A stretch of DNA of 64,000 nucleotides from an uncultured Actinomycetes bacterium. Lineage in GTDB: Bacteria > Actinomycetota > Acidimicrobiia > Spongiisociales > DATADW01. The notes beneath the pieces were generated by a model. It was given only the letters and a program-made list of their open reading frames with translations, did no database searches and was not told the DNA's origin. Positions 35,316 to 54,513 of this stretch are shown here, piece by piece. The position numbers and the translations under genes are program-made. The DNA lies in contig CAWGRK010000003.1 in assembly GCA_963824995.1 (NCBI GenBank), positions 1 to 64,000 of the forward strand, in the 5' to 3' direction. The first letter of the stretch is position 1. The number at the start of each line of letters is the position of its first letter.

Positions 35316-35348
35316 GTTCTACCGCGAGGTCGTCCGGACATCGTTACG
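35316..35348 (-). promoter_or_regulatory. SARP-type direct-repeat promoter (box 3)
   Basis: Minus strand CGTAACG-atgt-CCGGACG-N9-TAGAAC. Confidence 0.65.
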
Positions 35349-35396
35349 GACGCGGCACCGCCGGTCGGGAGACCGGCGGCGACGTCGTCAGACTGC

Positions 35397-35759
35397 TCAA
35401 CCGGCGGCGGCTACTGCCGACGCCTCGTCGGGATGGACGCCGATCGCCTCGTCGAGGCGGGTCAGCGAAAGAATCTGGCGGTAGTGCTCGTTGAGGCCAT
35501 AAGCGAGCAGCTGCTGTCCGGCACGGTTCGCCCGGATGAGCACGGTCACGAGCAGACCGATGCCGCCACTGTTCATGTACTGCAGCCCCTCGAAATTGAG
35601 GATCACGGCACGCACCCCATTGCCGCTGGCCTCGGCGAAGGCGTCCATGAGGACACCCTCGGAAAACGCCGTGACCTCGCCATCGATATCGATGACGCGG
35701 ACCCCCGGAGCCGCCTCTCTCACTTCCATTGCAACCTCTGCCTGTGGCATGTTCCCCAC
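35397..35759 (-). CDS. STAS domain anti-sigma factor antagonist
   Basis: IDIDGEV, LNFEGLQYMNSGGIG, LTRLD. Confidence 0.92.
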   Translation of the reverse strand: MGNMPQAEVAMEVREAAPGVRVIDIDGEVTAFSEGVLMDAFAEASGNGVRAVILNFEGLQYMNSGGIGLLVTVLIRANRAGQQLLAYGLNEHYRQILSLTRLDEAIGVHPDEASAVAAAG

Positions 35760-35766
35760 TCCCTAC

Positions 35767-36123
35767 CTAGGACGCCGCGTTTGCCGCCAGCGCCGCTTCC
35801 TCGTTCGGATATATGTGCACGAAATCGGCCAGCCGGGTGATCTGGAAGATCTCCCGATAGTGGTCACTCAGTCCGAAGGCCGACATGTCGCGCTGCTCGG
35901 CACGGGCCCGGGCGAGCACCCCCACGATCGCCGCGATCCCTGTGCTGTTGATGTACCCGACCTGGGTGAAGTCGAGCACGACGGAACTTGGCTCAAGGAC
36001 CGCCGCTTCTTCGTAGGCGGCGGCGAGGCGCTCCCGCGCGTTCCCGTCGAGGTCCCCTTCGAGTCGGATCAGCGCCCGTCTCTCCTCGTCGTGCACGGTC
36101 GCCTCAAAGGCGCTCGCCTGCAT
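35767..36123 (-). CDS. STAS domain anti-sigma factor antagonist
   Basis: LEGDLD, LDFTQVGYINSTGI, FQITRL. Confidence 0.92.
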   Translation of the reverse strand: MQASAFEATVHDEERRALIRLEGDLDGNARERLAAAYEEAAVLEPSSVVLDFTQVGYINSTGIAAIVGVLARARAEQRDMSAFGLSDHYREIFQITRLADFVHIYPNEEAALAANAAS

Positions 36124-37711
36124 CGCTTTCTCCTTCCAGGCTCATCTCGAGTTCGAGAGTGTGATGGCGATCTGTGGTGTGGACCCGAAGGTCGTCCACC
36201 ATGCTGCGGATCAGGAACAGGCCCCAACCGCGCGGCGTCTGCAATCCCTCCAGCTTGGCGTCGAGGTCGGGGGTCTCCGGGTCGGGAACCTCCCGCCCGC
36301 CGCCCTGGTCGATGATGGTGACCTTCACCGCTCCGACGTTGGCGCACACCTCTATCTCTACCGGCTTGTCCGGCTCGTTGCCGTTGCCATGCTCGATGGC
36401 ATTCATGGTCGCCTCGGCTACCGCCGTCTTCAATCTCTCCATGCGACCCGGCTCCATACCGAGCGGACTGACCCACTCGGCGACCCGATCCATGGCGACC
36501 CTTTCATTCCCGGCGATGCTGGGGAGCGTGAACTCGCCGAGTGACTGCCAGTCGCCGCCGTCGATGAAGGCGCGGGCGCTCTGCTCGGCCGACGAGCAGC
36601 GGCTGACCAGGACGAGCGTCACGTCGTCCTCCTGCTCCCAATCGGGCCCGGTCCAGGTGTCGAGCTCGGAGAGCACGACTCCGATGAGGCTCTCGCCCTC
36701 GGGACGCGATCCGATGGTGTCGATGACACGCGACACTCCGAGCATCTCGCGTTCCGGCGAGTGGGCTTCGGTGAGACCATCGCTGGAGAGCAACATCACG
36801 TCTCCCGTTTGCAGGGTCGCCTTTTTCTCCTCATAGGTCATCCCGGGCATCAGGCCGAGGGGCATCCCGGTCGCCCTGAGCTCGATCACACCGGTGTCAC
36901 TCCGCACATATGGAAGGACGTGGCCAGCATTCGCAAAGTCCAATTCGCCGGTGGCGGGGTCGAGAATGGCGAAGAGACAGGTCACGAACATCCCCTCGGG
37001 GATGTCGGCCACGAGGATCTCGTTGGCGCGGGCCAGGATCTCGCCTGGAGTCGCACCGGACGTGGCGTTGGCGCGGAGCACCGAACGACAGGTTGCCATC
37101 ACCAGCGCCGCCGGTACGCCCTTGTCGGTGACGTCGCCCACCACGACGCCGAAGCGGCCACCGTCGAGGGGGATGAAATCGTAGAAGTCGCCCCCGACCT
37201 CGCGGGCCGGCCGGTAATAAGCCTCGATCTCCCAACCGGGCAACGAGGGGAGCTGACGGGGCAGCAGTGTCTGCTGGATCAGCGAGGCGACCCGCAACTC
37301 GTGCTCGATCCGCTCCCTTTCCTTGGCCTCGGCCTGTTGGCGGCGGACGAGTTGGGCAACGCGGATCGCAGGCGCCACCTGGGAGGCGAGTCCTTCGAGA
37401 AGCTTGCGGTCGTCGGACGAATACGGCTGATCGGAGAGTCGGCGGCCAAGGTTGAGCATCCCGATGAGCTCACCCTGGCTGATGAGCGGGACCACCAATT
37501 CGACTCCGGCTTCGCGCAACTCTGCCACCGCCGGGGAGTCGAGGCTGAGCCGCTCCAACTCGACAGGCGCGCCCGCGGTCTGCAGATAGGGCAGCAGCGG
37601 ATCGTTGGGAGCGATATCGACATGGATCGACGCCGCCGGCGCCGTCTCCATTTCCTGCGGCTCGGACTCGGCTGCGGAACGACCCTTGCGGATGCGTGAC
37701 AGGACCACCAT
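36104..37711 (-). CDS. Soluble partial-GAF + SpoIIE/PP2C phosphatase + HATPase_c (RsbW-like) fusion
   Basis: VVPLISQGELIGMLNLG..YSSDDRKLLEGLASQVAPAI (GAF C-terminal part); VGGDFYD, GDVTDKG, SDGLTE, EDDVT (PP2C); EATMNAIEHG, DQGGG, RGWGLFLI (HATPase). Confidence 0.93.
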   Translation of the reverse strand: MVVLSRIRKGRSAAESEPQEMETAPAASIHVDIAPNDPLLPYLQTAGAPVELERLSLDSPAVAELREAGVELVVPLISQGELIGMLNLGRRLSDQPYSSDDRKLLEGLASQVAPAIRVAQLVRRQQAEAKERERIEHELRVASLIQQTLLPRQLPSLPGWEIEAYYRPAREVGGDFYDFIPLDGGRFGVVVGDVTDKGVPAALVMATCRSVLRANATSGATPGEILARANEILVADIPEGMFVTCLFAILDPATGELDFANAGHVLPYVRSDTGVIELRATGMPLGLMPGMTYEEKKATLQTGDVMLLSSDGLTEAHSPEREMLGVSRVIDTIGSRPEGESLIGVVLSELDTWTGPDWEQEDDVTLVLVSRCSSAEQSARAFIDGGDWQSLGEFTLPSIAGNERVAMDRVAEWVSPLGMEPGRMERLKTAVAEATMNAIEHGNGNEPDKPVEIEVCANVGAVKVTIIDQGGGREVPDPETPDLDAKLEGLQTPRGWGLFLIRSMVDDLRVHTTDRHHTLELEMSLEGESDAGERL

Positions 37712-37720
37712 GTTGCCTTT

Positions 37721-37753
37721 CTTCTACCCCGCCCTCGTGACGGCATCGTTACG
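37721..37753 (-). promoter_or_regulatory. SARP-type direct-repeat promoter (box 2)
   Basis: Minus strand CGTAACG-atgc-CGTCACG-N9-TAGAAG. Confidence 0.7.
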
Positions 37754-37867
37754 AATGACCCGTTCCATGCCTCTGAGGACGCGAAACATCAAACCTGAAA
37801 GCCGCTTGGCCCTGTATCGGCAGATAGAGCCGCCGCCTAAACGGTCGAAACGGGTGCGGAATGGTGA

Positions 37868-39037
37868 TCACCCGCCCTCCCCGCGTAGCCAGAGCCGGAC
37901 GGTCGCCGGGCGGAGCGTCCGTCCGACGACCCTCGAGAGATCGTCGGTGAGCCCGTCGAGATCCACCTCACTTCGCAACCGCGAGGCGAACTCGTCGACG
38001 ACGCGACCTGCGTCGTACCGGGACCGATCAAAGCGACGGTCGATGAAGCCTTGGACCCTGCGGCGAACCGGGGTGAACAAGGCTGCCGCCGCCAGCGTGG
38101 CACCTGCCACCGCCAACGGATTGTCTTGACCGACGACCGCACCCAGGGCCACGGCGAACCCGGCATAGACCGCCACCAAGACCGCTGCCACGATCGCATA
38201 TGAGACGGTGCGGCTGATGAGCCGATCGATGTCATAGAGGCGGTAACGGAGGATCGCGATGGCGACCGCTATCGGGAAGCCCAGACCGGCAACCACCCAA
38301 GGCACCAGCCCCACCAGGTCGCCCTCGAAACCCAACAATTCGGAGACGAGCATGAAGACCAAACCGAGGAGCGCCGCCACCAGGGCCAGCGCGACCCACT
38401 TCAGTTGACCGCGCTCCACGCCCGACGCCTTTCTGTACCGCCCGATGAGCGACAGAGCACCGAGCACGATCACCAGGACGAGGATCACCACGGCGACGGG
38501 GACGACCGACTCCAGCCACTCCGCTCCGTCGATGCCCATTGGGTTGTCGCCCACACCCGAAGGGGTCACGATGGTGGGTTTGAACAACGATGCCAGGGCG
38601 AAGACAACCAGAGCGGCGTAGCCAACCGCCACCACCGGTCGCCACCTCGACCCGGGCAAATGACCATCTGGGAAATAGAACGTCGCCGGGAAGGCGATGA
38701 GGCCGAAAGCGGGAGGCACCAGGATCGCACCGACGAGGGCCACCCATCCTGCCCAAGATGCGGTCTGCACCGGGAACCAGACAGATTCGGCGATGCTCTG
38801 CAGGTTGACGGCCAGTCCGAGCGCGGTGACTCCCGCCAGCCAGCACCAACCCAAGGGGTGTTCGGGCCGGCGAGCTGCCAGCAGCAACCCGACGATTGGG
38901 AACCCCATGAATGCGGACGCCCAAATCACGTCATCGATCACGACCTCGGCCCCGGAGTTGAACAGGAAGCCGAGGAGCCACGATGCGATCGCGACGACGA
39001 ACAGCAACCCCGCTGCCCACGGCGCCCACCTTTTCAT
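37868..39037 (-). CDS. Array membrane receptor paralog 13 (last), intact
   Basis: MKRWAPW...YRLYDIDRLISRT...DRRFDRSRYD...RLRSEVDLDGL...TLRPATVRLWLRGEGG*. Confidence 0.88.
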   Translation of the reverse strand: MKRWAPWAAGLLFVVAIASWLLGFLFNSGAEVVIDDVIWASAFMGFPIVGLLLAARRPEHPLGWCWLAGVTALGLAVNLQSIAESVWFPVQTASWAGWVALVGAILVPPAFGLIAFPATFYFPDGHLPGSRWRPVVAVGYAALVVFALASLFKPTIVTPSGVGDNPMGIDGAEWLESVVPVAVVILVLVIVLGALSLIGRYRKASGVERGQLKWVALALVAALLGLVFMLVSELLGFEGDLVGLVPWVVAGLGFPIAVAIAILRYRLYDIDRLISRTVSYAIVAAVLVAVYAGFAVALGAVVGQDNPLAVAGATLAAAALFTPVRRRVQGFIDRRFDRSRYDAGRVVDEFASRLRSEVDLDGLTDDLSRVVGRTLRPATVRLWLRGEGG

Positions 39038-39051
39038 GGGCTCTACATCCG

Positions 39052-39495
39052 TCACGGTGCGGTTCCATTGAGCCAGAGAGAAACCGACGCAGGCCGCAAC
39101 GTCTTGTTGACGACGGCAGTGAGGTCGGTCGGGAATATCAGCAGCAACACGAGCAACGCGCAGATGCTGACCACCCATCCCCAAGAGCCATACCAGGCGA
39201 TCAAGTGCTCCAACGGCCATGCGGTGGCAGACGCCAGCGATGAGAGGACATAGACCTGCCCCATCGACGTCAGGGTCTGCGCCACACCGGCCACGATGCA
39301 GAGCACACCGATACGGTTCCCTGGGCGGTGGGCGAGGATGATCGCCCCCACCACGGCGAACGCCGGCCAGGGAATAGCATCGGCGAGCGGCCGGAGATTG
39401 GTGAGCGTGGCCGACCGGTCGACCATGAATGCGACGATGGCGACCCAAGCCACGGCGAAGCCGGCGGCCACTCCCAACCACATTCGCCGCCTCAT
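39052..39495 (-). pseudogene. Array paralog 12: in-frame internal deletion relic
   Basis: N-terminal helices to LLIFPT joined directly to the family C-terminus DLTAVVNKTLRPASVSLWL. Confidence 0.8.
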
Positions 39496-40646
39496 CGGTT
39501 CTCCTCGCGCAGCCACAGGGCGACGCTTGCGGGCCGCAGCGTCTGTCCGACGACGGCGGTGAGGTCGGTGGCGAGACCGTCGAGATCAACCTCGTCCCGG
39601 AGCCGTGCACCAAAGCCGTCCACGATCACGCCGGCGTCATATCGCGAGCGGTCGAAGCGGCGGTCGACAAAGCCCTGCACCCGTCGCCGAACTGGCTGGA
39701 ACAACGCCGCTGCGGCCAACGTCGAGGCAGCCACAGCAAGCGGGTCGTTCGAGCCGAGAATGGCCTGCAATCCGAGGATCGAGCCGATGTAGACACCGGC
39801 CACCACGACCGACACCAGACCGTATGTCAGCGTGCGTCGGATCACCTTGTCGAAGTCGTAGAGGCGGTAGCGCAGCACGGCAACGGCGATCGAAGAGACC
39901 AAAACCAACACCACCAGCGCGAAAACCAGGTTGGCGTCCTGGGTGTAACCCAGTTCGTAGAGAACCATGTTGAGGACTATCGCCGTCACCGCAACGGCGA
40001 GGGCTGCGGCAAAGACCCTGATCTGTTGGCGCTCAATCCCCACAGACCGGCGGTACCGCTGGACCGCCCCAAACAGTGCCGCGCCCACCGCCACCAGCAC
40101 CAGCGCCATGCCTACCACTGCGGCCGGCTCGAAGAAGGGTGACAGTCTGGGAAAGCTGATCGGAAGGGCAATGGTGGTCGGGTCGGATGCCGTGCCCACT
40201 GTTACCGACTCCACGAAGGCGTTTCCGAAGATGAATAGCCCAAGCCCGGTCAGCGTCGCCGGCGCCACCCACCGATAGCGGGCGGAGGGCAGTCTGCCAT
40301 CGGGGAAGAAGAGCGGAAGGAATACGAGAAGCAGCACCAGTGAGGCCGCCCACAGCCAAATCCCGAGCCATGCGCTCCATCCCGCCAAGGGCCCTCCGGC
40401 CGCAGAAACGCCCTCTCCCATCACGCCGAGTGCGAAGGTGAGGCCGAAACCGGCGAGGATCAAGCCCACCGGATTCTCGGGGAGCCGCCAGACCAGATAG
40501 GCGCCGACGACGCTGGGAGAGGCGATCGCCAGCAGCCCCATTGCGTCGACCAGCCAACCGTCGCTCTGCTGGTTCTGAGTCTGCCCATACACGATGACGG
40601 CGACGCTTACCAGGGCGATGCCGATGCCCAACCAGCGCCGGATCAT
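39492..40646 (-). CDS. Array membrane receptor paralog 11, intact
   Basis: MIRRWLGIG...FFPDGRLP...YRLYDFD...TLRPASVALWLREENR*. Confidence 0.88.
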   Translation of the reverse strand: MIRRWLGIGIALVSVAVIVYGQTQNQQSDGWLVDAMGLLAIASPSVVGAYLVWRLPENPVGLILAGFGLTFALGVMGEGVSAAGGPLAGWSAWLGIWLWAASLVLLLVFLPLFFPDGRLPSARYRWVAPATLTGLGLFIFGNAFVESVTVGTASDPTTIALPISFPRLSPFFEPAAVVGMALVLVAVGAALFGAVQRYRRSVGIERQQIRVFAAALAVAVTAIVLNMVLYELGYTQDANLVFALVVLVLVSSIAVAVLRYRLYDFDKVIRRTLTYGLVSVVVAGVYIGSILGLQAILGSNDPLAVAASTLAAAALFQPVRRRVQGFVDRRFDRSRYDAGVIVDGFGARLRDEVDLDGLATDLTAVVGQTLRPASVALWLREENR

Positions 40647-40750
40647 GATGGTTCCTTCCGCAGCCATACCAGTGATAGCCCCGGCAGGAGGCCGAGTCCC
40701 GGGCGCCGGCCCACCCCCGCGGCGGCAGAAGTCGTTGGGGTAGAGCCCAT
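40643..40750 (-). pseudogene. Array unit 10: 35-aa mini-ORF relic
   Basis: MGSTPTTS...LSLVWLRKEPS*; TGATG overlap upstream and ATGA overlap downstream; C-terminus resembles the family SLWLRxE tail. Confidence 0.55.
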
Positions 40751-41879
40751 CAGCCCCTCTCCTTGACCCACAGCGAGACCGTCTCGGGGTGGAGCGTCCG
40801 CCGCACGACGCTGGTCACGTCGCCAACTAGGCCGTCGAGATCTATGCCTTGACGCAGCCGCGAGGAGAACGTCGTCCACTTCCTGGGCTGCGTCGTATCT
40901 CGCCCGATCGAAGCGTCGGTCGATGAAGGCCTGCACCCGGCGCCGCACCGGCGTGAAGAGCGCCGCCGAAGCAAGCGTTGCTCCCGCAACGGCCAGGGGG
41001 TTGCCCCGCCCCACCAGGGATCCGAGGGCCAGGATTGAACCCGCATACACCGCCACAAGGACCGCCGCCACTACCGCGTAGGAAACGGTGCGGCTGATCA
41101 GCTTGTCGATGTCGTAGAGCCGGTAGCGGAGGATGGCGACGCCGATGGCCGCTGGTATGGCGTTGAGGGCGATGAAGACGAGTGACACATCGAGGATGAC
41201 GCTCTCCGGGACCAACTGAGTGATCACCAGCATCACGATCACGAACGCGATCGCCGTCATCAACCATGGGTACTGGAGCCGCTCCACCCCGCTGCTGGCG
41301 CGCCACCTCCGTACCAGGCTGCCCAAGGCGACGAGGAGGAGCAACGGGATCACGAAGAACCCCTGGTCGAGCATGAAGGCGGTGAAACCGGAGAGACGTG
41401 TCGACTGCCAGCGGGCTCACCAGGCCGGTGATCTCCTTGGGGGCCGGGCTGACGAGCTCGGCAAAGACCACTGCACCCAAGACGACAAGTAGCGCCCTGC
41501 TCAGGAATCGATCCAAACCGGTGGCTGGTGCGCCATGCGGGAACCACACCGGAATGAGGGCTAGACCAACGAACGCCGAGTAACCGAGAGACGAGCTCAG
41601 CATTTCGACCCAAACGCTGACGATTCCGATCATCTCTCCGGCTAACAGCCCCTCGAGGAAGAAGGTCAGGCTCCATGCCAAGCCAATGAACAAAAGGAGC
41701 CGCCCCATCCGGTTCCCCGGTCTCTTCCACAGGATGAACGCACCGACGGTCGGAAATCCCACCCAGCTGAGCATCCACCAGCTGTCGGACAGGGTTATCG
41801 CCCCGATGATCAGGCCGGCGAGCGCCAGCAGGAACAGCAGCGTGAGCCCCAGCCGCGAGGCAACGGTTGCCTGCTTCAC
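40750..41879 (-). CDS. Array membrane receptor paralog 9, frameshifted
   Basis: VKQATVASRLG...KRPGNRMG...YRLYDIDKLISRT...TLHPETVSLWVKERG*. Confidence 0.82.
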
Positions 41880-43070
41880 GCGTCCTCCCGGAGCCAGACC
41901 GACATGGTCGTCGGGTTGCAGTGTCTGGCCCACGACACCCGAGAGATCGGAAGTGAGCCCCGGGAGGTCCACCTCCGCCCGGAGCCTCGAGGCAAAGCCG
42001 TCGACCACCCTCGCTGCGTCGTACCGCGATCTGTTGAAGCGCCGATCGATGAAGGACTGAACCCGGCGGCGCAACGGGTTGAACAATGCCGCCGCAGCCA
42101 GAGTGGCCCCTGCCACCGCCAGCGGATTGCCGCGGCCCACCAGCGATCCGAGAGCCAGGATGGAACCGGCGTACACCGCTACCAGGACGACGGCAATGAC
42201 CGCGTAGGAGACGGTGCGACTGATGAGCCGATCAATCTCATAGAGGCGATAGCGGAAGATGGCCACGCCGATGGCGAGCGGCAAGAGGCTGATGGCTACG
42301 GCGAAGGGGACGTCGGTTTCAACCGAGAGGTCCGCCAGCGACTGGAGGAGGTCCTCGGTCGACCGGTATCAGCGCGGTGACGAGGGCAGCGAATGTGAAC
42401 CACTTGAGCTGTAGCCGCTCGTCGCCCCGGGAGCGTCGGTATCGCACCACCACCGAGGACGCCGCAGCGAGGATCGAGCGCGGCAAGCAGAATGAAGAGC
42501 GCGCTGCCGATGGTGCTGTCCTCGACATCGGGCATGCCGGCAAAGCCGACTGGGTTGGGCAGCGAGAAGTCGGGCTCTCCGAGGTTCTCGGAGAGCGCCG
42601 CCATCACCGTTATCACCCCGGTGACAGCAATCCCGAGCCACAGAACCGGTCGCCACCGACGGCTCACCGGTGTGCCGTCCGGAAAGAGGAGCGGCGTAAA
42701 GAAGAGCACCAAGGCGAGCGTCGGGTACCAGTACCACTCGGCGAGCCAGGCCGCCGGTATCAATGCGGGCGCATCCACCATCCTCGCTTCGACCACATAT
42801 GCGACGTACTCACCAGCCAGGGCGCCGATCATCACCAGCAGGCCAATGGAAGAAAGTATCCAGCCCATCGCATTGCCAGGACGACGGAGGATGATCAGCA
42901 AGCCGGTGGCCATGTAGGCGGAGAAGGCCAGGAGGAGGCCGACATTGCCCGCAGGGTCGTCGGCGAACCGACCACTCCGTGCGTTGAACAGCTGGATCAG
43001 GAAGGCGCAGGTGACGTAGACCACCACCATGGCTACGACGACAAGCCATGAGTCGGGATCGGAGCTTCAC
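41876..43070 (-). CDS. Array membrane receptor paralog 8, frameshifted
   Basis: RRPGNAMGW, LLFPDG..RRWRP, ERLQLKW, YRLYEIDRLISRT; ends PTTMSVWLREDA* after a 1-nt correction. Confidence 0.82.
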
Positions 43071-43148
43071 GGCGCTTCCCGCAACCGTGTGAACCGACGA
43101 CTCACGGGTATACCACCACGGCGACTGCGAGCGGGTAGACGAACCGTC

Positions 43149-44387
43149 TCACGACTCCGCCTCCCGCACCCAGAGAGACATCGTGGCGGGGCGGAGTGTT
43201 TCCTCGATCACCCCGGTCAGGTCGCTGCGCAAGCCGTCCAGATCGGTCTCAGCTCGCAGTCGATAGGAGAACTGCTCCACAACCTGTTGGGCGTCATAGC
43301 GTGCACGATCGAATCGGCGGTCCACCCAACTCTGGACACGGCGTCGAACCGGGTTGAACAGCGCTGCGGCTGCCAGGGTGGCGCCCGCCACAGCCAACGG
43401 GTTGTCGCGACCGATGATGGTGCCCAAGGTGGTGACGCTCCCCAGGTAGACGAGCGCCAGTAGCACAGCCACGGCCGTATAAGTGAACGTACGGCGGACG
43501 AGTCGATCTATCTCATAGAGGCGATATCGGATCACAGCAACGGCGATGGCCACCGGGATAGCGGCGATCGAGATGACAAAGAGGAGGTCCAGCCACGCCG
43601 GCGTTTCCTCACCACCGGAGAAAGCGAACATGGAGGAGTAGACGGTGGCGAACATCCCGACGGCGTAGGCGAGCCACTTGATCTGCTGGCGTTCCTCCGC
43701 CCGGGCGCGGCGATAGCGGACGATGACCGCCGACGCGCTCCCCAGAGCCAGGATTACCAACCCCACCCCCCACACAGGCGAGAAGCCCCCCTCCCAGAAT
43801 TCACTGGTGATGAACCCGATCGGATTGGGCACCGACCAGATGGTTGTTTCCCCAACTACCAGCTCGAGCTCTGCGGAGAAGACGGTGAGGAGCGTGAAGA
43901 CCAGGAGCATCCCCGCCTCCAACGCCACCAGCCATCGCCAGCGTGGGGTGGGAACCGTGCCGGTTGGGAACACCAGGGGCAGATGGAAGATCGGAAAGAT
44001 GAACAGAACCCAGGACCAGCCCTGAAACCAGATCAGTAGCCAGACGCCGAGGTCAACGGTCGGCGGAGCCGTCAAGGACGAAAGTGGGATGGCGGTCAGA
44101 CCCGACAACGAGGCTCCCAGGGCCCAGACCAGTAGCAGCCAACCGATCGGGTTGCGGGGACGGGAGGCGAGGATGAGCATCGCCGCCGCTGCAGTGATTA
44201 ATGGAATGAGCACCAAGACCGGATCCCCATCCAATCGGTCCAACTCACCCTGGCGGATCGTGATGAGGATGTAGGACACCGAGATGGCGAGAACGATCAC
44301 AGCGATGCCCCAGGCCAGCGGTCGCCGCCAGCCGAAGCCCACGACCTCATGTTCCGCGGACGGTGCCCCTCGGTCCGGGTCGGCCAT
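43149..44387 (-). CDS. Array membrane receptor paralog 7, intact (412 aa)
   Basis: RPRNPIGW, FPTG..PRWRW, ERQQIKW, YRLYEIDRL, TLRPATMSLWVREAES*. Confidence 0.9.
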   Translation of the reverse strand: MADPDRGAPSAEHEVVGFGWRRPLAWGIAVIVLAISVSYILITIRQGELDRLDGDPVLVLIPLITAAAAMLILASRPRNPIGWLLLVWALGASLSGLTAIPLSSLTAPPTVDLGVWLLIWFQGWSWVLFIFPIFHLPLVFPTGTVPTPRWRWLVALEAGMLLVFTLLTVFSAELELVVGETTIWSVPNPIGFITSEFWEGGFSPVWGVGLVILALGSASAVIVRYRRARAEERQQIKWLAYAVGMFATVYSSMFAFSGGEETPAWLDLLFVISIAAIPVAIAVAVIRYRLYEIDRLVRRTFTYTAVAVLLALVYLGSVTTLGTIIGRDNPLAVAGATLAAAALFNPVRRRVQSWVDRRFDRARYDAQQVVEQFSYRLRAETDLDGLRSDLTGVIEETLRPATMSLWVREAES

Positions 44388-45561
44388 CAGGCATCACCTC
44401 TTGTCGATGCCAGCCACACCCCGGTGATGGTGGGACGAAGCGTGTGGTTTACAACTCCTTCCAGGTCGGCGGTGAGCGCATCCAGTTCCATCTGGTCGCG
44501 CAGGCGCGCCGAGAACCCGGCCACGACCTGCACACTGTCGTAGCGCGCCCTGTCGAAGCGGCGGTCCACCCACCCCTGGACCCGCCGTCGCAACCGGGGT
44601 GAAGAGCGCGGCCGCCGCCAGGGTGGCTCCCGCGACCGCCAACGGATTGTCCCGACCGACGACAGCGCCGAGCGCAGCTATCCCCCCGAGATACGCGCCG
44701 GCGACGATCACGGCCACGATCGCGTAGGCCAGAGTCCGAGTGATGAGCCGATCGATCTCGTACAGACCGAGGCGCGTCACAGCCACGAACAGCGTGCCGC
44801 CAATCGAGGATGACGAAGCCGATGTTGATGAAAGAGGACAGCAGGGGCGGTATGTCGCCGGGGATGGACACGGCGAAGAAGATCACCGCGACGACGCCGA
44901 CCCAGGCAAACCACTTGATCTGCTGGCGCTGCACCGTACCGGCGCGCCGAAAGCGGAAAATGAGCGAGGTGACCCCGATCAACGAGGCGACGGGGATGGC
45001 GTTGAAGACGATCGGTGCTAGCGCTTCTGCGATGGGCATGAAGCTGGCGATTCCCAGCGGGTTGTTCAAACCAGGTAATAGCTCTTCGTCCACCGGTCCC
45101 GAGGCAAAGGCGCTGATCAAGAACGTGAGCCCAACCAGCGTCCAGAGCAGCCATAACAGAGGGCGCCACCGAGGAGATGCCGGCCGACCGTCTGGATAGA
45201 GCGCTAGGAGGAAGGGGATCGAATAGGGCCCTGGGATCCACACCCAGAGGGAGCACCACCCCGCCACCAAGGTCACCCAATGATCGGGCCCCAAATTGGT
45301 CAGGCCATAGTGGGCGAGGTCCGAGAGCAGTGCTTCCAGTGGGAAAACCAGACCGGGTATGAGGGCCAGCCATGCCACTGCGTTGGTTGGCTGACGACGC
45401 GCGATGAGGAAGCCGAACGTCCCGAGGATGACGAATGCGAACAGTTCGACCGCTTCGAGCACCGGGCTGGCACCCGCCGATGGCGCATACGCGCCGTAGA
45501 CAACGGCTGCCAACCAGGAGACGATGCTCGCCAGCCAGACGACCAGGGCTGCCCGTCTCAC
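44387..45561 (-). CDS. Array membrane receptor paralog 6, frameshifted
   Basis: VRRAALVVWL...QPTNAVAW...YPDGRP...QRQQIKW...LYEIDRLITRT...TLRPTITGVWLASTRGDA*. Confidence 0.82.
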
Positions 45562-46735
45562 GAGCTCCTCTCCGACCAGCACCACCGACATCGTGGCCGG
45601 GCGCAGCGTCGAGCCGACGATTGTCGTGAGGTCAGTGGTCAATCCCTCCAGATCCACCTCGTCGCGTAGCCGGGCCGAAAACCCTTCCGCCACGCGGACA
45701 GCGTCGTAGCGGCCCCGGTCGAAGCGGCGATCCACCCAACGTTGCACCCGGCGGCGTAGCGGGTTGAACAACGCCGCCGCCGCCAGGGTCGCCCCGGCCA
45801 CCGCCAGCGGGTTCTCACTCCCGACGAGCGCTCCCAGCGCCGCCACCCCACCTAGGTACACCAGGGCGAGCAGCACGGCCACCACGGTGTAGCTCACGGT
45901 ACGACGGACGAGGCGGTCAATCTCGTAAAGGCGGTAGCGGAGCACCGCGATCCCGATGGCAATCGGGAAAACCAGCACGGCCAGAACGAAACTGGCATTC
46001 TCGACCGCATCCGGCACGTCGACACCGAAGGCCACCGCAATCTCCTGTGACACGATCGCGACCGCCACCAGCGCCATCGCGAACGTGAGCCAGGAGAGCT
46101 GCTTCCGTTCGACACCCGAGGCTTTGCGGAACCTGACCACCAGTGAGGCCGACGCCAAGACAACGCCAGCAAGGATGCCGAAGATGACCATTGTCTCCGC
46201 CAAAGAGCCCTCGGAATAGTCGGGCGCCATCCCCACGCCAAGCGGGTTCGAGATCACCCCGTTCAGGGTGGGCTGAACGAGCGCGAGCGCGGTGTGGCAC
46301 ACGACAACTCCCAATGCCCCCCACCCGACCCAGGCCCATCCGGGAGTGGGTGGCCGACCGGTCGGGAAGAGCAGCGGGAGGATGACCACGGTGCAGACGA
46401 CGGCAGCGATGAAGAAGATGTCGCTCACCAGGAATCCGGCGACTGCCAGGCCGGTCGATCCACCGGTCGAGGCTCGCTCGGCGATAGGACTCCCCACCGC
46501 GCTCGATGAGAGCGATCGCTCCGATCGCCACCATCACCCAGCCGACGCGGTTCCCGCCGGTCCGCCAGACGATGGTGGCTCCCACCAGTGACATGGCCAG
46601 GAAGGCTGCCGCCAGCGGGTCGAGGCCTTCCCAAGTATCACTTGTCCCCGCGGGCAAGAACCCGTAGGCGATTACCCCCGCCAGAGTCGCCCCGAAGAGA
46701 GACCACGCCAGGACCGTCTGCGTCCGAGGCTTCAT
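45558..46735 (-). CDS. Array membrane receptor paralog 5, frameshifted
   Basis: MKPRTQTVLAW...GGNRVGW...LLFPTGRP...ERKQLSW...YRLYEIDRL...TLRPATMSVVL. Confidence 0.82.
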
Positions 46736-47908
46736 GACCCCTCCCCGGCCAGCCACATCGATACGCCGGCCGGGCGGAGGGTCTCGCCCACAATTCGGGT
46801 GAGACCGCCCGTGAGTCCTTCGAGGTCCACCTCGTCGCGTAGCCGTTCCGAGAAAGCGGAAACTACCTGCGAAGTGTCGTAGCGGGTCCGATCGAATCGG
46901 CGATCCACCCACCCCTGAACCCGCCGGCGGACAGGAGTGAAAAGCGCTGCCGCTGCCAGAGTCGCACCTGCCACGGCCAATGGGTTATCGCTCCCGACAA
47001 CCGCTCCGAGGGCCGCCACTCCTCCCAGATCGACCGCGGCGAGGACCGCAGCAACCAATCCGTAGCTCACCGTCCGGCTTATCAACCGGTCGATGTCGTA
47101 CAGCCGATACCGGAATATTGCGACCGCCATTGCCGCAGGGAGCAATACACCGGCAACGGCCTCGTTTATCTGGTCGAGCACGCCAGGAAGGTCGATGGCC
47201 CAGGATGGGAGACTGAACACTGCCGCCAAGGCGAGCCACTTGATCTGCCTTCGCTCGACCCCGGAGGCTTTTCGGTAGCGGAGCAGCACGGACAGGACGC
47301 CCAGGGGCACTCCGGCAAAGAGCACTATCAAGAGCACGCTCCCCGCCGGCTCGAGAGCTTGAGCGGATGTCTTGCTCACCACGCCGCTCCATGTGGCCGG
47401 AAAAGTGCCGCTTTCAGCTGGGAGCATCCAGATTCGCCGCCGCCATCAGCCCCACGGCGATGGAAGTCGTCCAGGCCACGATTCGCCAGAATGTTGAGGA
47501 GAGTCTGCCGTCGGGGAAAAGGAGCAAGACGAGACCTATCAGCCATAACGAGGAGAGGAAGCCGTAGTCGCCGATCAGACCGAGCAGCCCCGTAGATAGC
47601 GGTCCCGTCTGCCCGGAGGCGAGCAGGAAAACCCCGTAGTCACGGCATGCCGATTGCATTATCTGGGCAAATCCCAGACCCAACCAAGCCCATCCGTACC
47701 CCTTGTCTGGGAAACGGGTCACCAGCAGCCAGCCGACTGCAGCAATAGCGAGCCCGCTCGGGTACGAGGCGAGCCGGGTCGCCCAAGGGGCGACGTCGGC
47801 GAGTGCCGGGAAGTTCCGGCTAGCCAAGGCCGACCAGATCCCTACCAGTGCAATTGCCACCGTCACCAGGGCCACGATCGTGGCGCTCGCGGCGAAGCGA
47901 CGTCTCAT
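46732..47908 (-). CDS. Array membrane receptor paralog 4, frameshifted
   Basis: MRRRFAASA...LLFPDGRL...ERRQIKW...YRLYDIDRL...TLRPAGVSMWLAGEGS*. Confidence 0.82.
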
Positions 47909-49065
47909 GTCCGCTCCCCCACAAGCACCAAGGAGACGGCGGCCGGTCGGAGGGTGTCGCCGACGAGTCGGGTGAGGTCTCCAGTGAGACCTTGGAGATC
48001 AACCTCGTCGCGGAGCCTCGCCGAGAACTCCTCGACGACCTTGTGGGCGTCGTATCGGGTTCGATCGAACCGACGGTCCACCCATTGCTGGATCCGGCGC
48101 CTCAACGGGTTGAACAGAGCGGCCGCAGCCAGAGTGGCGGCGGCAACTGCCAGCGGGTTGGTCCTTCCCAAAACTGTCCCCACCAGCGCAACGGACGCCA
48201 GGTAGACCCCGGCAAGCACCGCGGCCACCAACGTGTAGCCGGCCGTCCTCCTGATCAATCGATCGATGTCGTAGAGGTGGTAGCGGAAGACGGCAACGGC
48301 GATCGAGACCGGAAGCAGGACGAGGCCGAGGAAGAGGAGCTCGGCGATCACACTTCCCTGTGCGGTGAACTCGGCGACGATGCCCGCTGCGACGACCGCC
48401 ACCGCCAACAGGAACCACTTGACCTGGGCCTGCTCGACACCCCGTGAACGGCGAAATCGCACGATCACAGATCCGAGAGCCGCCACCGCCCCGAAGAGCA
48501 TCATTGGTACACCCACCGTGTTCAGCACAGCGAGGATCGGGCTCGTCGGCTGGAGTTCGTCGCCGGTGAAGAGCTGGACCGGCGACAACTCGAGGGCGGC
48601 AGGCAGCCCGGCAACTGCGACGAACACGAACCCCGTGACACCGACCCATGCGATCCAACGCCACCGGGGTGTCGGAGGCCGGCCGTTGGGGAACAGGAGC
48701 GGGAGCAGGCAGGTCAGGACGGTCACCCAGCCGAAGAAACCGACGCCGCCAAGCCAGTAGAAGATCTGCGGCCATGGTGCCGCCACCCCAGCCGTGGCCA
48801 GGGCCTCCATGATCTCGTCGGCTAAGACGTTGAGCGCGGCGAGAAGCCCAACGAGAGCAACCAGCCAACCGACAGGCTCCTCGGGACGGCGCGCGACCAG
48901 AACGGCTCCCGTCAGCGTGAACGAGACCAGCATCCAGCCAAAGACCAGCACCTCGGAGGAAAAGCCCTCATCCCCGGTGGCGAAGAGGACGAATGCCGCG
49001 ATCCCGCTCACGACCGAGATCCCCGCCATGACCAAGCCCCAGCGACGACGCACGGCGGGGCTCAC
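47905..49065 (-). CDS. Array membrane receptor paralog 3, intact (386 aa)
   Basis: RRPEEPVGW, LLFPNGRPPTPRWR, EQAQVKW, YHLYDIDRL, TLRPAAVSLVL. Confidence 0.9.
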   Translation of the reverse strand: MSPAVRRRWGLVMAGISVVSGIAAFVLFATGDEGFSSEVLVFGWMLVSFTLTGAVLVARRPEEPVGWLVALVGLLAALNVLADEIMEALATAGVAAPWPQIFYWLGGVGFFGWVTVLTCLLPLLFPNGRPPTPRWRWIAWVGVTGFVFVAVAGLPAALELSPVQLFTGDELQPTSPILAVLNTVGVPMMLFGAVAALGSVIVRFRRSRGVEQAQVKWFLLAVAVVAAGIVAEFTAQGSVIAELLFLGLVLLPVSIAVAVFRYHLYDIDRLIRRTAGYTLVAAVLAGVYLASVALVGTVLGRTNPLAVAAATLAAAALFNPLRRRIQQWVDRRFDRTRYDAHKVVEEFSARLRDEVDLQGLTGDLTRLVGDTLRPAAVSLVLVGERT

Positions 49066-50210
49066 CTGCTCGACTTCCCGAACAGGACCACACCGGCGGA
49101 AACCGGGCGAAGCGTGGCTGCCACGACCCCTGTCAGTCCCGTGGTCAGTCCGTCGAGATCGACCTCGTCACGCAGTCGAGCCGAAAACCCCTCGACGACT
49201 TGCCCCGTGTCGTAACGAGCCCGGTCGAAGCGGTGATCGACCCATGCCTGAACTCGGCGCCGAACCGGGTTGAACAAGGCCGCGGCGACCAATGTGGCGC
49301 CGGCTACTGCGAGCGGGCTTGTTCGCCCCACCAAAGCCCCGATGGCGGCGATGCCGCCGAGATACATCGCCGCAAGGAGCACGGCAACAAGTGTGTAGGT
49401 CACCGTCCGTCGGACCAACTGGCCAATGTCGTACAAGCGGTAGCGGAGCACGGCTATCCCAATCGCAACCGGGAAGACGGACACTGCGAACACGAAAGAG
49501 GAATTCCCAACCCAATCCGGTATCTCGAGACCCAAGATGGGCGCAAGCTCTTGGGCGACGAGCGTGACCGCGATCATTGCCACCGCGTACGTCAGCCAGG
49601 CGACCTGCTTGCGCTCGACGCCTGTAGAGTGCCGGAACCTGACCACGAGACTCGCCGCGGCGAGGACCATGCACGCCAGCAGGACGACGATCACGGCCGT
49701 CCCGATGGCCGAGTCCTCGGCTCCCGGGGCTCCGGCGACCCCGAGCGGGTTGGGGACCCCGTCTGCCACGGTGGGCTGGATCACTACGAGCACCGCGTTC
49801 ACCACTACGGCGCCCACGGCCGCCCACGCAACCCAACCCGAGCGGGGAGTCGGGAGGCGCCCATTAGGAAAGAGGAGGGGGAGGAACACGAAGGTCCCGG
49901 CGAGGGTGGCGAAGAACATCGAATCGGAAAACAGCGAACCGAGCACCAACGACCACTCGGGCACATCGCTCCGATCGGCGAGGATTCCTGTCAACGCGCT
50001 CGACACCGCGATCAACCCGATGCCGACCATGACCCATCCCACGGGGTTGCCCCCGGTGCGCGAAACGATCACCGCCCCAACGAGCGCCATGGCGAGGTAC
50101 GGGATCGAGAGCGAGTCGAAGGCGTGCTGAGCGATTTGGTTAATTACGACGCCGGCCAGGATCAAGACGAAGATCGACCACGCCACCACTGACTGGGTGC
50201 GCCGGTTCAT
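49062..50210 (-). CDS. Array membrane receptor paralog 2, intact (382 aa)
   Basis: GGNPVGW, LLFPNGRL, ERKQVAW, YRLYDIG, TLRPVSAGVVL. Confidence 0.9.
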   Translation of the reverse strand: MNRRTQSVVAWSIFVLILAGVVINQIAQHAFDSLSIPYLAMALVGAVIVSRTGGNPVGWVMVGIGLIAVSSALTGILADRSDVPEWSLVLGSLFSDSMFFATLAGTFVFLPLLFPNGRLPTPRSGWVAWAAVGAVVVNAVLVVIQPTVADGVPNPLGVAGAPGAEDSAIGTAVIVVLLACMVLAAASLVVRFRHSTGVERKQVAWLTYAVAMIAVTLVAQELAPILGLEIPDWVGNSSFVFAVSVFPVAIGIAVLRYRLYDIGQLVRRTVTYTLVAVLLAAMYLGGIAAIGALVGRTSPLAVAGATLVAAALFNPVRRRVQAWVDHRFDRARYDTGQVVEGFSARLRDEVDLDGLTTGLTGVVAATLRPVSAGVVLFGKSSR

Positions 50211-51355
50211 CGTTCATCCATGAGCCAGAGCGACGCCCCCTTCGGGCGGAGGGTGACGTTGACCACGCGCGTCAATTCCGAGCTGAGTCCTAGAAGGTCG
50301 ACCTCGTCGCGTAGCTTGGCGGTGAACCCCTCGACCACCCTCTGGGCGTCGTACTTCGACCGGGAGAAGCGCCGGTCAACCCACCCCTGCACCCGCCGTC
50401 GCACCGGTGTGAACAGCGCGGCAGCGGCGAGGGTGGCCGCCGCAACCGCAAGCGGGTTCTCACTCCCGACCAGAGCGCCCAAGGCGGCGACGCCACCGAG
50501 GTACACCGCCGCCAGCGCCACCACGACTACGGCGTAGGTGACGGTGCGATTGACTATCCGGTCTATCTCGTAGAGCCGATAGCGGAAGATTGCTATTCCG
50601 ATCGCGACGGGGAGCAACAGGTACGAAACGCCGTAGAGGATGCTCTCGAGGGTCTCGTTCAGCTCCAGCAGGTCGAGGGTTCCGACCACCACGATGAACA
50701 CGGCTGCGGCGTAGAGCAGCCACCCGATCTGCCGGCGCTCGAGCCCACCAGATCGGACAAATCGCACGACGAGGGAGATCACCGAGACCACCCCGACGAC
50801 GAGGAATCCGGTGAGGAGAGCAGGGCCGATCGCCAAACCGATATCGACCAGCAATGGTATGGCGATCGGGTTGGCGAAGTCGGGCTCCACCTGACCGAAG
50901 GCGCTCAGTATCACGAATAGCCCGCCGACCGCGACGGTGACCCTCACCACCCAACGCCAGCCAGGACTCGGGGGTCGGCCCGTCGGGTAGAGCAGGAACA
51001 GCAGTCGGGATCAGGGCCAATCCGGCGTTCCAACCCCAGAGGAGAACCAACGACCGATCACGGCGCCCGGTCGGCCGGTCGTCGCCCACATCACTCCTGC
51101 GACGCTGAGCCAGACAAAGAGCCCGTCGAGCAGAAGCAGCCAACCCACCGGATTGCCCCGCCGTATCACGATCAGGGATCCGACTGTGCTGAGGGCGAGA
51201 AAGGCGATCCCGATGTCAGTCCCCTCGAGGTCGGGGATCCTGTCCCGACAGTTGCATGACGGCAACGAGGGCAAAACAGGGACGACCAGCGCAAGGATCG
51301 CCATCGCCAGCACCCGGAGCGGGCGCGACGGAATAGCCCACTCCCTCTCCGTCAT
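50207..51355 (-). CDS. Array membrane receptor paralog 1 (first), frameshifted
   Basis: MTEREWAIPS...RGNPVGW...YPTGRP...ERRQIGW...YRLYEIDRIVNRT...TLRPKGASLWLMDER*. Confidence 0.82.
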
Positions 51356-51402
51356 CTCTTCACCGCGCCGTACCACTCGATCTCCTGGCTGCGGTCAGCG
51401 TC

Positions 51403-51435
51403 AGGGTCCCCTACTCCCGTGACGGTGCCGTTACG
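51403..51435 (-). promoter_or_regulatory. SARP-type direct-repeat promoter (box 1) heading the receptor array
   Basis: Minus strand CGTAACG-gcac-CGTCACG-N9-GACCCT. Confidence 0.68.
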
Positions 51436-51670: not shown

Positions 51671-54513
51671 ATGGGAGATCGTCACGCCATTGGTCAAGAC
51701 TCCGTTGCACTCGAGGTGCATCTGCTCGGACCGCCCGAGATCTTGGTCGACGGCCACCCGATGAAGGTCGACACGCGCAAGGCGGTGGCTCTGCTCGCCT
51801 ACCTCGCCGTCACCGGCACCCCGCACAACCGCGATGTCCTTGCGACCCTGCTCTGGCCGGGGGACGATCCAGACCGGGCGAGAGGCAGCCTGCGTCGCAC
51901 CCTCTCCACATTGAGGTCGGGGCTTGCCGACCGATGGGTCCGAGCTGACAGGGAGTGGGTCTCGTTCGACCCGAACACCGAGGTGTTCGTCGACATCGAC
52001 TACGTCGGGGACCGCCTCGCAGAGATCGAGGAGCACGGACATCCTGCAACGCGAGGTGTGCGCTCGGTGTGTCCCCATCCTGACCGATGCGGCGACGCCT
52101 GCATCGTGGCGACTTCCTCGCCGGATTCTCGTTGCGAGACAGCCCGGACTGGGATGACTGGCAGTCGGCCCAGGCAGAGATGCACCGCCGAAGCCTTGGC
52201 GGGATCCTGGAGCGGCTCGCCATCGGGCAGGCGGCCGCAGGCATGTACCGCCAGGCGATAGACGCCGCCGAGCGCTGGCTCTCGCTCGACCCGCTCGACG
52301 AGGCGGCACACCGTCAGTTGATGCTGCTCTATGCGTGGGCAGGGGATCGCGCCTCGGCCCTGGAGCAGTACCTCAAGGCGGTTCGGATCCTCGACGAGGA
52401 GTTGGGGGTACCGCCGCTGCCCGAGACCACCGAGCTCAACGACGCCATCCTCGAAGACGACATCCCTCCGGCACCCTCAGCGGGACGAAGGGTGACCGCC
52501 GCTCCGCACCAGCCCCGGCTGCCGGTCGAGAGCCCGATGATCCCGTTGGTGGGAAGAGAATCGGATCTGATCCTCATCAACGGGGCGATGACGCCGGGCG
52601 CGGTGCTCGCCATCGAGGGAGAGGCGGGCATCGGCAAGACCAGGCTCCTCGAGGAACTTGTCACCTCCCTCGACGAGCCGGTCCTCGTCCAGGCCTATCA
52701 AGGGGAGGCCGGACTGGCTTATGGCTTGATTCGTGAGGCGATCGAGCATGCCGTGCGCGCCGGGGGTGAAGCGCGACTCGCCGGAGTCTCGCCCGACGCC
52801 CTCGGCCAAGCAGCGCGTCTCTTTCCCGACCTGGCCCCGGTGCCGCTCCCGCCATTGGACACCGACGCCGCCGCTGCTCGCACTCGGCTGTTCGACGGTG
52901 TGTCGCGAACCCTCGCCGCCCTCTGCGGAGCGAGGGCACTGGTGATCGATGATGTCCATTGGGCGGACGAAGCCTCGATCGAACTTCTCTCTTATCTCGT
53001 GCGGCGGCTCCACCGGCTTGAGATGACACTCGTCGTCACCTGGCGCACCGAGGAGTTCCCCCCCGGACATGGGCTGCGGAGGGTCGTGGCCGCCGCTCAC
53101 CGACAGGGTGGTGGCGTGCTGGTCAAACTCGATCGTCTCGACTCCGCAGCAGTGGCGCAGCTCGCATCGGCGTTTCTCGGCGATGACGTCGATCCGGGAA
53201 TCGTGGACATCGTCTTCGCCGAGACCGAGGGGCTCCCGTTCTTCGTGGTCGAGTACCTGACCTCGATCAAGGAAGGTCGGCCGGAATCGATCGACGTCCC
53301 CGACCTCCTCGACGCGAGGCTCTCCGGGCTGAGCGACATCGCCCGGCAGGTTGCGTCGGCTGCGGCGGTGATCGGACGGTCGTTCGATGTCGAGTCACTT
53401 CGCGCCGTCTGTGGTCGGAGTGACGACGAGGTCGTCACCTCTCTTGAAGAATTGCTGCGACGGGGGGTGGTGAGGGAGCCGGCAGGTGTGGCGTCCGGCT
53501 ATGACTTCTCCCACGAGTTGCTCCGGCGTCATGTGCTGGCGTCGACGTCCCTGGCGAGGCGCCGCCTGCTACACCAAAGGACGGCTGACGTGCTCGTCGG
53601 GCGCCACCGTCGAGATACAGAGGCGATGGCGGCGCAGATCGGATTTCACCTCGAGGCGGCCGGCAACGATCTGGAAGCGGCGGATCAGTACGCCTTGGCC
53701 GCGGGTCGGGCAGCGGCGCTGTATGCCAACCGCGAGGCGCTCGACCTGTACCAACGATCTTTGGCGTTGGGGCATCAGGATCCGGCAGCGCTCCACGCAG
53801 CCATCGGCGACCTCGAGGCGCTTGCAGGGGCATACGGCTCGGCGGTGAGCTCGTACCAGACCGCAATCGCCCTGGGCGGACCATCGGCGCGGGGTGAGCG
53901 GCGGCTGGCTCAGGTGTACTCCTATCTAGGGGCCTGGGAGGTGGCGGAGGCCCACATGCTTCAAGCCGAGAAGCTGCTGGCTCCTGACGATCCGGAGCTG
54001 ATGACGGCGGCGGTGGAGCACGCTTTGATCGCCCACAGGAGCGGAGACGACGAGCGTGCCGGGGAACTGGCGGGAGCAGCCTTGGAAGCGGCCGACGCCG
54101 CCGCCGGTCCCGGCGACCGGGCACGGGTCAACAACCTGCTCGGGATCCTCCGTCGGAACGACGACCCCGAGCTTGCCCTCGAATACCTCACGACCGCCCG
54201 TGAACTGGCGGTCGAATCAGAGGACCCCGGTCTGCTTGCCGGCGTCCTCAACAACCTGGCGCTGGCATATCTCGCCGATGGTGAAGCGGAGAAGGGCATA
54301 GAGGCGGCCGAGCAGGCGCTCGACGTGTACCGACGAATAGGGGACCGCCACCGTGAGGCGGCCGTTCACAACAACCTCGCCGACATGTTGCACAAGACAG
54401 GACGAGGCGAGGCGGCCATGGCCCACCTCAAACAGGCAGTGGCGATCTTCGCCGAGGTCGGCACCGAGCCCGGTGCCTACGAGCCGGCAGTGTGGAAACT
54501 CGCCGAGCTATAG
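51671..54513 (+). CDS. SARP/BTAD transcriptional activator with AAA ATPase and TPR repeats, frameshifted near 52040-52100
   Basis: HLLGPP..RKAVALLAYL (wHTH); RGDFLAGF..DPLDEAAHRQLM (BTAD); GEAGIGKT, DDVHWAD (ATPase); NNLA TPRs. Confidence 0.9.

Follow-up and report, generated by a model that had tools for sequence, protein, structure and literature searches.

A putative partner-switching cassette whose input GAF domain may be shared between an array of membrane receptors and one soluble PP2C enzyme

Membrane sensors, GAF domains and partner switching by PP2C phosphatases are all known kinds of signalling element, and input from several sensors to a single PP2C is known from the stressosome. 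Here, a locus is described that combines these elements in a tandem array of membrane receptor genes followed by the gene of one soluble PP2C/RsbW-like enzyme. It lies on contig CAWGRK010000003.1 of an uncultured Actinomycetes bacterium (GenBank assembly GCA_963824995.1); the whole stretch analysed, referred to as the window, comprises 64,000 nucleotides (positions 1-64,000), and coordinates refer to it unless a related locus is named. What is new in this locus is a break inside a domain, together with an array of alternative donors. The locus is probably a partner-switching cassette in which the input GAF domain is encoded in two pieces, with the receptor tail completing the GAF domain of the enzyme.

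The closest described proteins carry the same parts on one chain. Fused membrane-GAF-PP2C proteins (P0135, P0138, P0142 and P0144) have the same membrane module, GAF subfamily and PP2C domain as the window. GAF domains are also encoded in cis with PPM phosphatases, such as RsbZ of Clostridioides difficile and OsaC of Streptomyces coelicolor, and in these proteins, as in the window enzyme, a helical linker joins the GAF to the PPM domain (passages of PMC12143880). In the fused and cis forms the whole GAF domain is on one chain and each enzyme has one sensor, whereas in the window the domain is cut after strand β1 and up to 11 sensors precede one enzyme.

The stressosome-RsbT-RsbU pathway of Bacillus subtilis resembles the locus in its wiring. 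Paralogous sensors act on one PP2C and through it on a STAS anti-anti-sigma factor, and a partner activates the RsbU phosphatase through its N-terminal domain and linker (parts of PMC12143880 and PMC11821858). In contrast, neither the RsbR/RsbS STAS scaffold nor the RsbT kinase was found in the window, and its STAS proteins are two small downstream ones only. Its sensors are membrane proteins without a STAS domain, and coupling would occur through completion of a fold, not through release of a diffusible activator.

A multi-pass membrane module followed by a cytoplasmic GAF domain is also found in PrsK-type kinases, LytS/BtsS-type kinases and HisKA_7TM (PF16927) sensors. The window receptors, however, fall below the curated cut-offs, lack a kinase and stop inside the GAF domain. 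More distant is the completion of an incomplete beta-sheet fold by the strand of a partner, as in the donor-strand complementation of chaperone-usher pilins; myomesin with obscurin-like-1 is reportedly another case of fold complementation (PMC5222588). This likeness is one of analogy only, as these are structural Ig-like folds with assembly or mechanical roles, not cytoplasmic signalling domains, and they have no array of alternative donors. A literature search, mostly outside subscription journals, found no description of a natural split GAF domain or of the cassette, in agreement with a preliminary description of the locus, made from the sequence alone, whose author knew of none.

The output enzyme (Table 1) is an independent gene, since two in-frame stops and a GAAAGG-like ribosome-binding site ahead of the ATG separate it from the last receptor. 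Its 535 residues contain no hydrophobic segment, and its N-terminus reads as first quoted. The phosphatase domain is complete (PF07228, 169.5 bits against a cut-off of 25, profile positions 1-190 of 192). The GAF domain is not: the Pfam GAF families PF01590, PF13185 and PF13492 match residues 37-116 only with the later part of their profiles (positions 53-133 of 133, 91-135 of 136 and 76-127 of 129). This C-terminal-only match was repeated in all four homologous enzymes scanned from other loci. Supporting this, a profile of 70 enzyme N-termini aligns with solved GAF sequences over their C-terminal third alone, for instance over residues 101-151 of 153 in DevS.

An AlphaFold2 (AF2) model of enzyme residues 1-140, built from an alignment of 70 homologues, has a mean pLDDT of 83.8, rising to 93-96 over residues 31-130, with the first 25 residues disordered. 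It contains helices at 39-46 and 60-67, a hairpin of strands 72-78 and 81-88, and a long helix at 99-139 that continues from the last helix of the GAF towards the PP2C domain as a linker. It contains no α1 and no β1. Residues 30-38 are placed confidently yet unpaired, and 30-36 are likely β2, partnerless in the enzyme-alone model. Foldseek matches listed for the model are all GAF or GAF-like domains, bar one engineered fusion that contains one; the alignments span 57-107 columns with target-normalised TM scores of 0.11-0.48, the best E-value is 4.7e-3 and none reaches E <= 0.001. As modelled, the enzyme N-terminus is a partial GAF domain. The strand order of the GAF sheet is 2-1-5-4-3 (a passage of PMC8707292), so β1 is an inner strand between β2 and β5 and the enzyme-alone model is without a core element. 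The expectation that the N-terminus would not form a complete GAF on its own is in keeping with both the Pfam matches and the partial fold of the model.

Upstream of the enzyme, on the minus strand between 37868 and 51376, ORF listing, translation and tblastn with an intact receptor located 11 paralogous multi-pass membrane units in tandem and one remnant. All lie on one strand, and their stop and start codons overlap, as is typical of operons. The eleven sensors of the preliminary description are present as units, but only five of the 11 are intact ORFs in the assembly; one of the other six is broken by an in-frame stop and five by frameshifts or lost stops. Genes outside the array, encoding a DUF72 protein and a regulator, are also broken, which suggests indel errors in the assembly, and the breaks in the receptor units may be assembly errors instead of decay. 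At the position of the remnant, three relatives (L001, L002 and L004) have a full unit, about 700 bases longer, so that the remnant marks a deletion between repeated units or else a place where the assembly has collapsed.

Some adjacent units read through into each other on the minus strand, namely units 5 and 6 (about 44394-46735) and units 8 and 9 (40750-43030). Database proteins P0121-P0132, of 729-1005 residues and without a Pfam domain, likewise contain two or three receptor units and are either real tandem receptors or artefacts. The G+C content of the window is about 65-68%, and its plus strand between 38000 and 52000 has a strong excess of A over T, which fits minus-strand genes rich in hydrophobic codons. 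No Rfam family was found in 35000-52500; no sigma-70-like promoter was found, and terminator-like sites were at chance level.

By hydropathy, the receptors have about 8-9 hydrophobic segments, and the tail that comes after these is charged and 66-90 residues long. Neither Pfam nor NCBIfam has a family that reaches its cut-off in any receptor piece, in keeping with the description of the array as multi-pass proteins without a catalytic domain. The nearest are PF16927 (HisKA_7TM; 18.2-24.8 bits against a cut-off of 28.6, in three of the 11 pieces) and TIGR02916 (PrsK; 19.7 bits against 300), and Pfam finds neither a kinase nor a STAS domain. The seven tails that can be read all carry the tail motif given in the preliminary description, align without gaps, and stop 125-127 residues past the RYRLYDID motif and 3-6 residues past LWL or its variants. 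Counted from RRRVQ, the tail is 63-65 residues long, not about 50 past the last helix as had been estimated.

Among the five intact paralogues, mean identity is 28% in the N-terminal membrane part, 60% between RYRLYDID and the final membrane helix, and 63% for the tail, indicating that the sensor has diversified and the output end has been conserved. The last 27 or so residues match the remainder of the tail in conservation. The tail alone gives no Pfam GAF match in any receptor. At least 5627 homologues of 226-721 residues were found among 8000 candidates scored, nearly all of them about 400 residues long and named hypothetical, and the ESM Atlas holds only unnamed clusters for the receptor.

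What links tail and enzyme is their arrangement in single-chain relatives. Longer relatives of the receptor tail number 53 proteins and include both membrane-GAF-PP2C and membrane-GAF-kinase fusions, among which are the cis fusions to GAF-PP2C and GAF-histidine kinase outputs that the preliminary description had mentioned. The fused PP2C proteins are 46-54% identical to the window enzyme. In five fused proteins, BLASTP places receptor and enzyme on adjacent, non-overlapping stretches, as had been anticipated: in P0135 the receptor aligns up to position 535 and the enzyme from 557 onward, with corresponding positions of 534 and 551 in P0142, 444 and 480 in P0138, 399 and 414 in P0144, and 463 and 482 in P0147.

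Pfam GAF coverage in these proteins is essentially whole (profile positions 1-133 in P0142 and P0138, 3-133 in P0147 and 8-127 in P0135). The match begins at the DLExL helix of the tail in P0142 and P0138, at the equivalent position in P0147 and eight profile positions in for P0135. In single-chain relatives, tail and enzyme N-terminus are therefore contiguous and jointly fill the GAF profile, and the last 27 or so receptor residues correspond to GAF α1-β1. Of the α1-α2-β1 segment that the receptor had been proposed to donate, this mapping recovers α1 and β1 but not α2, one helix fewer. Part of P0147, searched against the sequences of solved structures, gave no match at E <= 0.01.

A second and more distant fused family consists of HisKA_3 kinases of about 700 residues, in which close homologues of the receptors are fused to a compact cis GAF domain and the kinase; hhalign aligns the tail profile to this family with a probability of 95% (E 4e-8). 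Three further proteins of 1207-1268 residues (P0143, P0145 and P0171) combine a match to the receptor tail region with AAA/ATPase-type domains (PF13401, PF01637 and PF13191), and the receptor module may join outputs besides PP2C and kinases.

The split arrangement recurs in related genomes. A scan of species-representative genomes gave 552 relatives, of which the best 80 loci were kept with about 20 kb each. These come from Acidimicrobiia, Rubrobacter, Thermoleophilia/Solirubrobacterales, Kribbella and several classes of Chloroflexota. Among the 80 loci, 65 have six-frame ORFs that match a profile of the receptor C-terminal module, without exception on the strand of the enzyme. The enzyme motif was located by pattern in 73; the seven loci missed (L015, L025, L041, L050, L064, L070 and L075) were left out of the counts given below, and all have receptor matches. 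Among the 64 loci with at least 1500 nucleotides upstream of the enzyme, 53 have one to eight complete-tail receptors upstream, within 1500 nucleotides in 49 of them, and two further loci have a receptor with a masked or frameshifted tail. This brings the split arrangement to 55 of 64 loci, which come from Actinomycetota and Chloroflexota, and the co-occurrence of tail-only receptors and half-GAF phosphatases that had been predicted is observed.

In the related loci, 203 of 222 complete tails have their stop at most 13 residues away from the profile end, so the tail pattern is not a matter of chance. For example, two isolates, Kribbella steppae and K. caucasensis, carry five and four receptors back to back in their genomes; all nine end in SLWLR followed by 3-12 residues, and the enzyme of K. 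steppae begins 10 bases downstream of the last receptor stop. Loci bounded by the divergent regulator described below have between one and seven complete-tail receptors upstream of the enzyme, and the window, with 11 and a remnant, is the largest seen. Tail-only receptors also occur downstream of the enzyme, in L049 (15860-18249), L038 (13620-14948), L029 (14551-15675), L034 (9893-11308), L040 (12944-14218), L018 (13103-14221) and L007 (4857-6704). Those in L049 and L038 are parted from the enzyme by unrelated genes and adjoin a cytochrome P450 gene.

Enzyme residues 1-140 have 1618 homologues of 294-937 residues, and the best 120 of these are all 308-578 residues long; a short, variable N-terminus precedes the DIAPNDP motif in all eight homologues examined. 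Against 1.84 billion representatives, the half-GAF profile matches 16441 proteins at E <= 0.001, of which 287 reach E <= 1e-30. The best 150 representatives, clustered at 50%, were classified by form: 98 are short, 15 have an N-terminal extension of at least 250 residues, 10 have an intermediate extension (four with a partial receptor module), 11 match the later part of the profile only and 16 are giant multi-GAF proteins. Each of the 15 long extensions contains the receptor C-terminal module immediately before the half-GAF, and among the 150 no half-GAF member is completed by anything but the receptor tail. The giant proteins (P0294, P0322, P0337, P0339, P0346 and others) have 1566-3952 residues, with 6-20 repeats that match the later part of the half-GAF profile only.

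A tree of the half-GAF-plus-PP2C region, for which 232 rows were reduced to 113, requires nine to ten changes between fused and short forms with FastTree and IQ-TREE, the fused entries being unscreened gene calls, at least two of them (P0133 and P0137) apparently products of frameshifts. A more careful tree, which leaves out the long branches P0402, P0415, P0423, P0306, P0395 and P0330 and the frameshift-like P0137, requires nine, at least five of them forced by strongly supported branches. A single fused clade is rejected by the AU test (delta lnL 202, p 5e-8). Both fusion and fission have recurred at one intradomain point, and such recurrence is a classical sign that two gene products function as one unit.

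From these observations we infer physical docking, an allosteric route and a role of the receptors as alternatives, as competitors or in a mixed complex. With its α1-β1 inserted into the incomplete GAF domain of the enzyme, a receptor tail would complete the fold and hold the enzyme at the membrane. The membrane module would then relay its state by way of the completed domain and the linker helix to the PP2C switch, which would set the phosphorylation state of the two downstream STAS proteins. Paralogous receptors, up to 11 in the window and 0-8 in related loci, would share or compete for the single enzyme, with their divergent membrane modules supplying different inputs. A comparable route has been proposed for PPM phosphatases with N-terminal sensor domains, including GAF domains, which would be controlled through a dimeric helical linker; for RsbU, the partner protein is proposed to activate by ordering the linker (passages of PMC12143880).

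This reading may be taken further, with belief and doubt about evenly balanced, to a natural trans-complementation hub. An obligately incomplete GAF domain would be completed by any of up to a dozen receptors, each donating α1 and the inner strand β1, so that receptor choice, membrane recruitment and allosteric activation would be one folding event. Such a hub would be old, spanning at least Actinomycetota and Chloroflexota, and its fusions and fissions would have recurred at one position inside the domain.

Several results weigh against completion of the GAF domain by the tail. As assembled, fewer than half of the window units are intact, and the case for tail docking is drawn from the fused relatives, some of which may be gene-calling artefacts in the databases (P0133 and P0137 look frameshifted). 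The tail profile, searched against PDB sequences, found no GAF domain, only chance matches to helical repeats and apolipoproteins. In the HisKA_3 family, hhalign places the half-GAF profile on the cis-GAF region in the right order but not significantly (probability 1.3%, E 0.04). Covariation, computed from 190 tail-enzyme pairs (Neff 48), gave an uninformative picture, with the top 50 pairs distributed 13/3/34 over half-GAF, linker and PP2C and column shares of 94/36/193; the half-GAF is not enriched, at 13 of 50 against a column share of 29%. Finally, nine loci (L006, L010, L011, L013, L021, L022, L024, L051 and L068) have a short-form enzyme and no receptor module in 20 kb, and these keep the invariant half-GAF residues. 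They belong mostly to one Acidimicrobiia clade, and in eight of the nine the regulator lies directly upstream of the enzyme, L051 having no regulator. In such loci the half-GAF can act by itself, unless the receptor genes lie elsewhere.

Some of these results fit an alternative that we consider unlikely, though worth serious attention: the pathway would be the same, but the GAF domain would not be completed in trans. Following an ancient fission, the α1-β1 segment would be a vestige or have another role, such as receptor oligomerisation, the half-GAF alone would serve as a dimerisation or linker-capping module, and coupling would run through other surfaces or amount to mere co-expression. The equally conserved half-GAF of array-less cassettes, the high confidence with which AF2 models the half-GAF alone, the missing covariation signal and receptor genes away from the enzyme, such as the one beside the P450 gene in L049, all fit this account. 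A vestige, however, would not be expected to keep a conserved end and a fixed stop in nearly all tails. It is also at odds with long extensions that are the receptor module in every case and with fusion and fission that recur at the same point inside the domain, and an enzyme without its inner strand β1 would miss a core element of the fold.

In another account, a fused receptor-enzyme would be made from the split genes by read-through, frameshifting or tail recombination, with the array serving as a set of cassettes instead of encoding separate proteins. The last receptor and the enzyme of the window do share a frame, repeated tail DNA could recombine, some units read through into each other and double or triple receptor proteins exist in databases. 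Against this stand the two in-frame stops and the ribosome-binding-site-like sequence between the genes, and the operon-like organisation of the units, tandem on one strand with stop/start overlaps. In the 40 loci where last receptor and enzyme are close, their frame relation is 16:13:11; it is unconstrained, which argues against read-through. Fusion to a receptor occurs in none of the 73 enzyme ORFs that were located, and four long open frames are in a different frame from the receptor. Frames and stops lead us to reject read-through and recoding, and we regard a fused product of any such origin as very improbable.

That the split is an artefact or a product of decay (mis-assembly, indels or pseudogenes of a fused gene) is the least credible account and largely refuted: the assembly does carry frameshifts in six broken receptor units, the DUF72 gene and the regulator, and the enzyme ORFs of the nearest relatives L001, L002 and L004 are truncated, but the same stop position and separate enzyme start recur in most assessable loci from independent assemblies, isolates of two Kribbella species are among them and short forms predominate among the diverse representatives.

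The preliminary description had placed the system at 36104..51355, which covers receptors and enzyme. The conserved cassette is larger and consists of receptors, the half-GAF PP2C/RsbW-like enzyme, two STAS genes and a divergent regulator. STAS ORFs lie downstream of the enzyme in all 66 loci with enough sequence, two of them in 62, and a Pfam scan of 35 of the 58 ORFs from five loci gave the same result. In the window, the two STAS genes share an operon with the RsbW-like kinase domain of the enzyme; both STAS antagonists have a serine at the usual phosphorylation site, and antagonist 1 is a likely substrate of the phosphatase and kinase domains. In Rubrobacter, the RsbW-like kinase domain is a separate gene (L049 10711-11592, L038 8942-9817) after a 389-residue half-GAF-PP2C, so that the enzyme, too, comes in split and fused versions.

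The BTAD-AAA_16-TPR regulator has a homologue in 43 of the 80 loci, which in every case lies on the opposite strand. With few exceptions its place is immediately ahead of the first receptor or, in loci without an array, of the enzyme, and as a neighbour it marks the upstream end of the array. By its position alone, the regulator is a candidate partner of the switch. Taken together, the observation made in the preliminary description is confirmed and its interpretation partly supported, and those of its computational tests that were run were all favourable.

The array is flanked by pantothenate and folate genes, which indicates an ordinary chromosome. On the minus strand, an ORF of 287 residues (55359-56222) pairs two stretches of Clp_N with dihydroneopterin aldolase (FolB), an unusual pairing that may reflect either a genuine fusion or an indel that has joined two genes. 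The DUF72 gene (33793-34531, minus strand) is split over two frames, with profile positions 1-49 in one ORF and 64-216 in another. An anti-phage defence system was also considered and set aside, as PADLOC gave no match in the 5 proteins scanned.

Table 1. Coordinates of the cassette genes in the window, in the order in which the array is transcribed
Feature	Position	Strand	Description
BTAD-AAA_16-TPR regulator	51704..54513	+	Divergent from array; frameshifted between 52006 and 52099 in the assembly
Receptor unit 1	50207..51376	-	Membrane module with a tail that ends in ASLWLMDER; interrupted by a single in-frame stop around 51011-51013
Receptor unit 2	49062..50210	-	Intact, 382 aa; 4-base overlap with next gene
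Receptor unit 3	47905..49065	-	Intact, 386 aa
Receptor unit 4	46732..47908	-	Frameshift gives two ORFs, 47414-47908 and 46732-47427; tail complete
Receptor unit 5	45560..46735 (ends approximate)	-	Frameshifted; tail without stop, continues into unit 6
Receptor unit 6	44394..45560 (start approximate)	-	Distributed over three frames
Receptor unit 7	43149..44387	-	Intact, 412 aa; served as search query
Receptor unit 8	41880..43030 (end approximate)	-	Several frameshifts; tail continues into unit 9
Receptor unit 9	40750..41880 (start approximate)	-	Frameshift within tail
Receptor unit 10	39492..40667	-	Intact, 391 aa
Receptor remnant	39067..39342	-	N-terminal piece joined to tail end; internal deletion
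Receptor unit 11	37868..39022	-	Intact, 384 aa, start set at Met at 39022; last before phosphatase; final ~27 residues (DLDGL...RLWL) correspond to GAF α1-β1
Output enzyme	36104..37711	-	535 aa; partial GAF ~30-120, long linker helix, PP2C/SpoIIE 183-370, RsbW-like HATPase_c_2 404-521
STAS anti-sigma-factor antagonist 1	35767..36123	-	118 aa; Ser/Thr in NSTG site
STAS anti-sigma-factor antagonist 2	35397..35759	-	120 aa; Ser in NSGG site

Bacterial signalling proteins are usually described as whole domains joined in varied orders. Here, the boundary between proteins falls inside a domain, and this intradomain break is conserved across phyla and accompanied by arrays of alternative donors. The system is directly testable, because cultured Kribbella species, which are non-pathogenic, carry compact versions with four to five receptors. 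If docking is true, it would be a new wiring of many sensors to one output and a natural precedent for the design of split-domain biosensors. It would also explain thousands of membrane proteins of about 400 residues that are currently named hypothetical.

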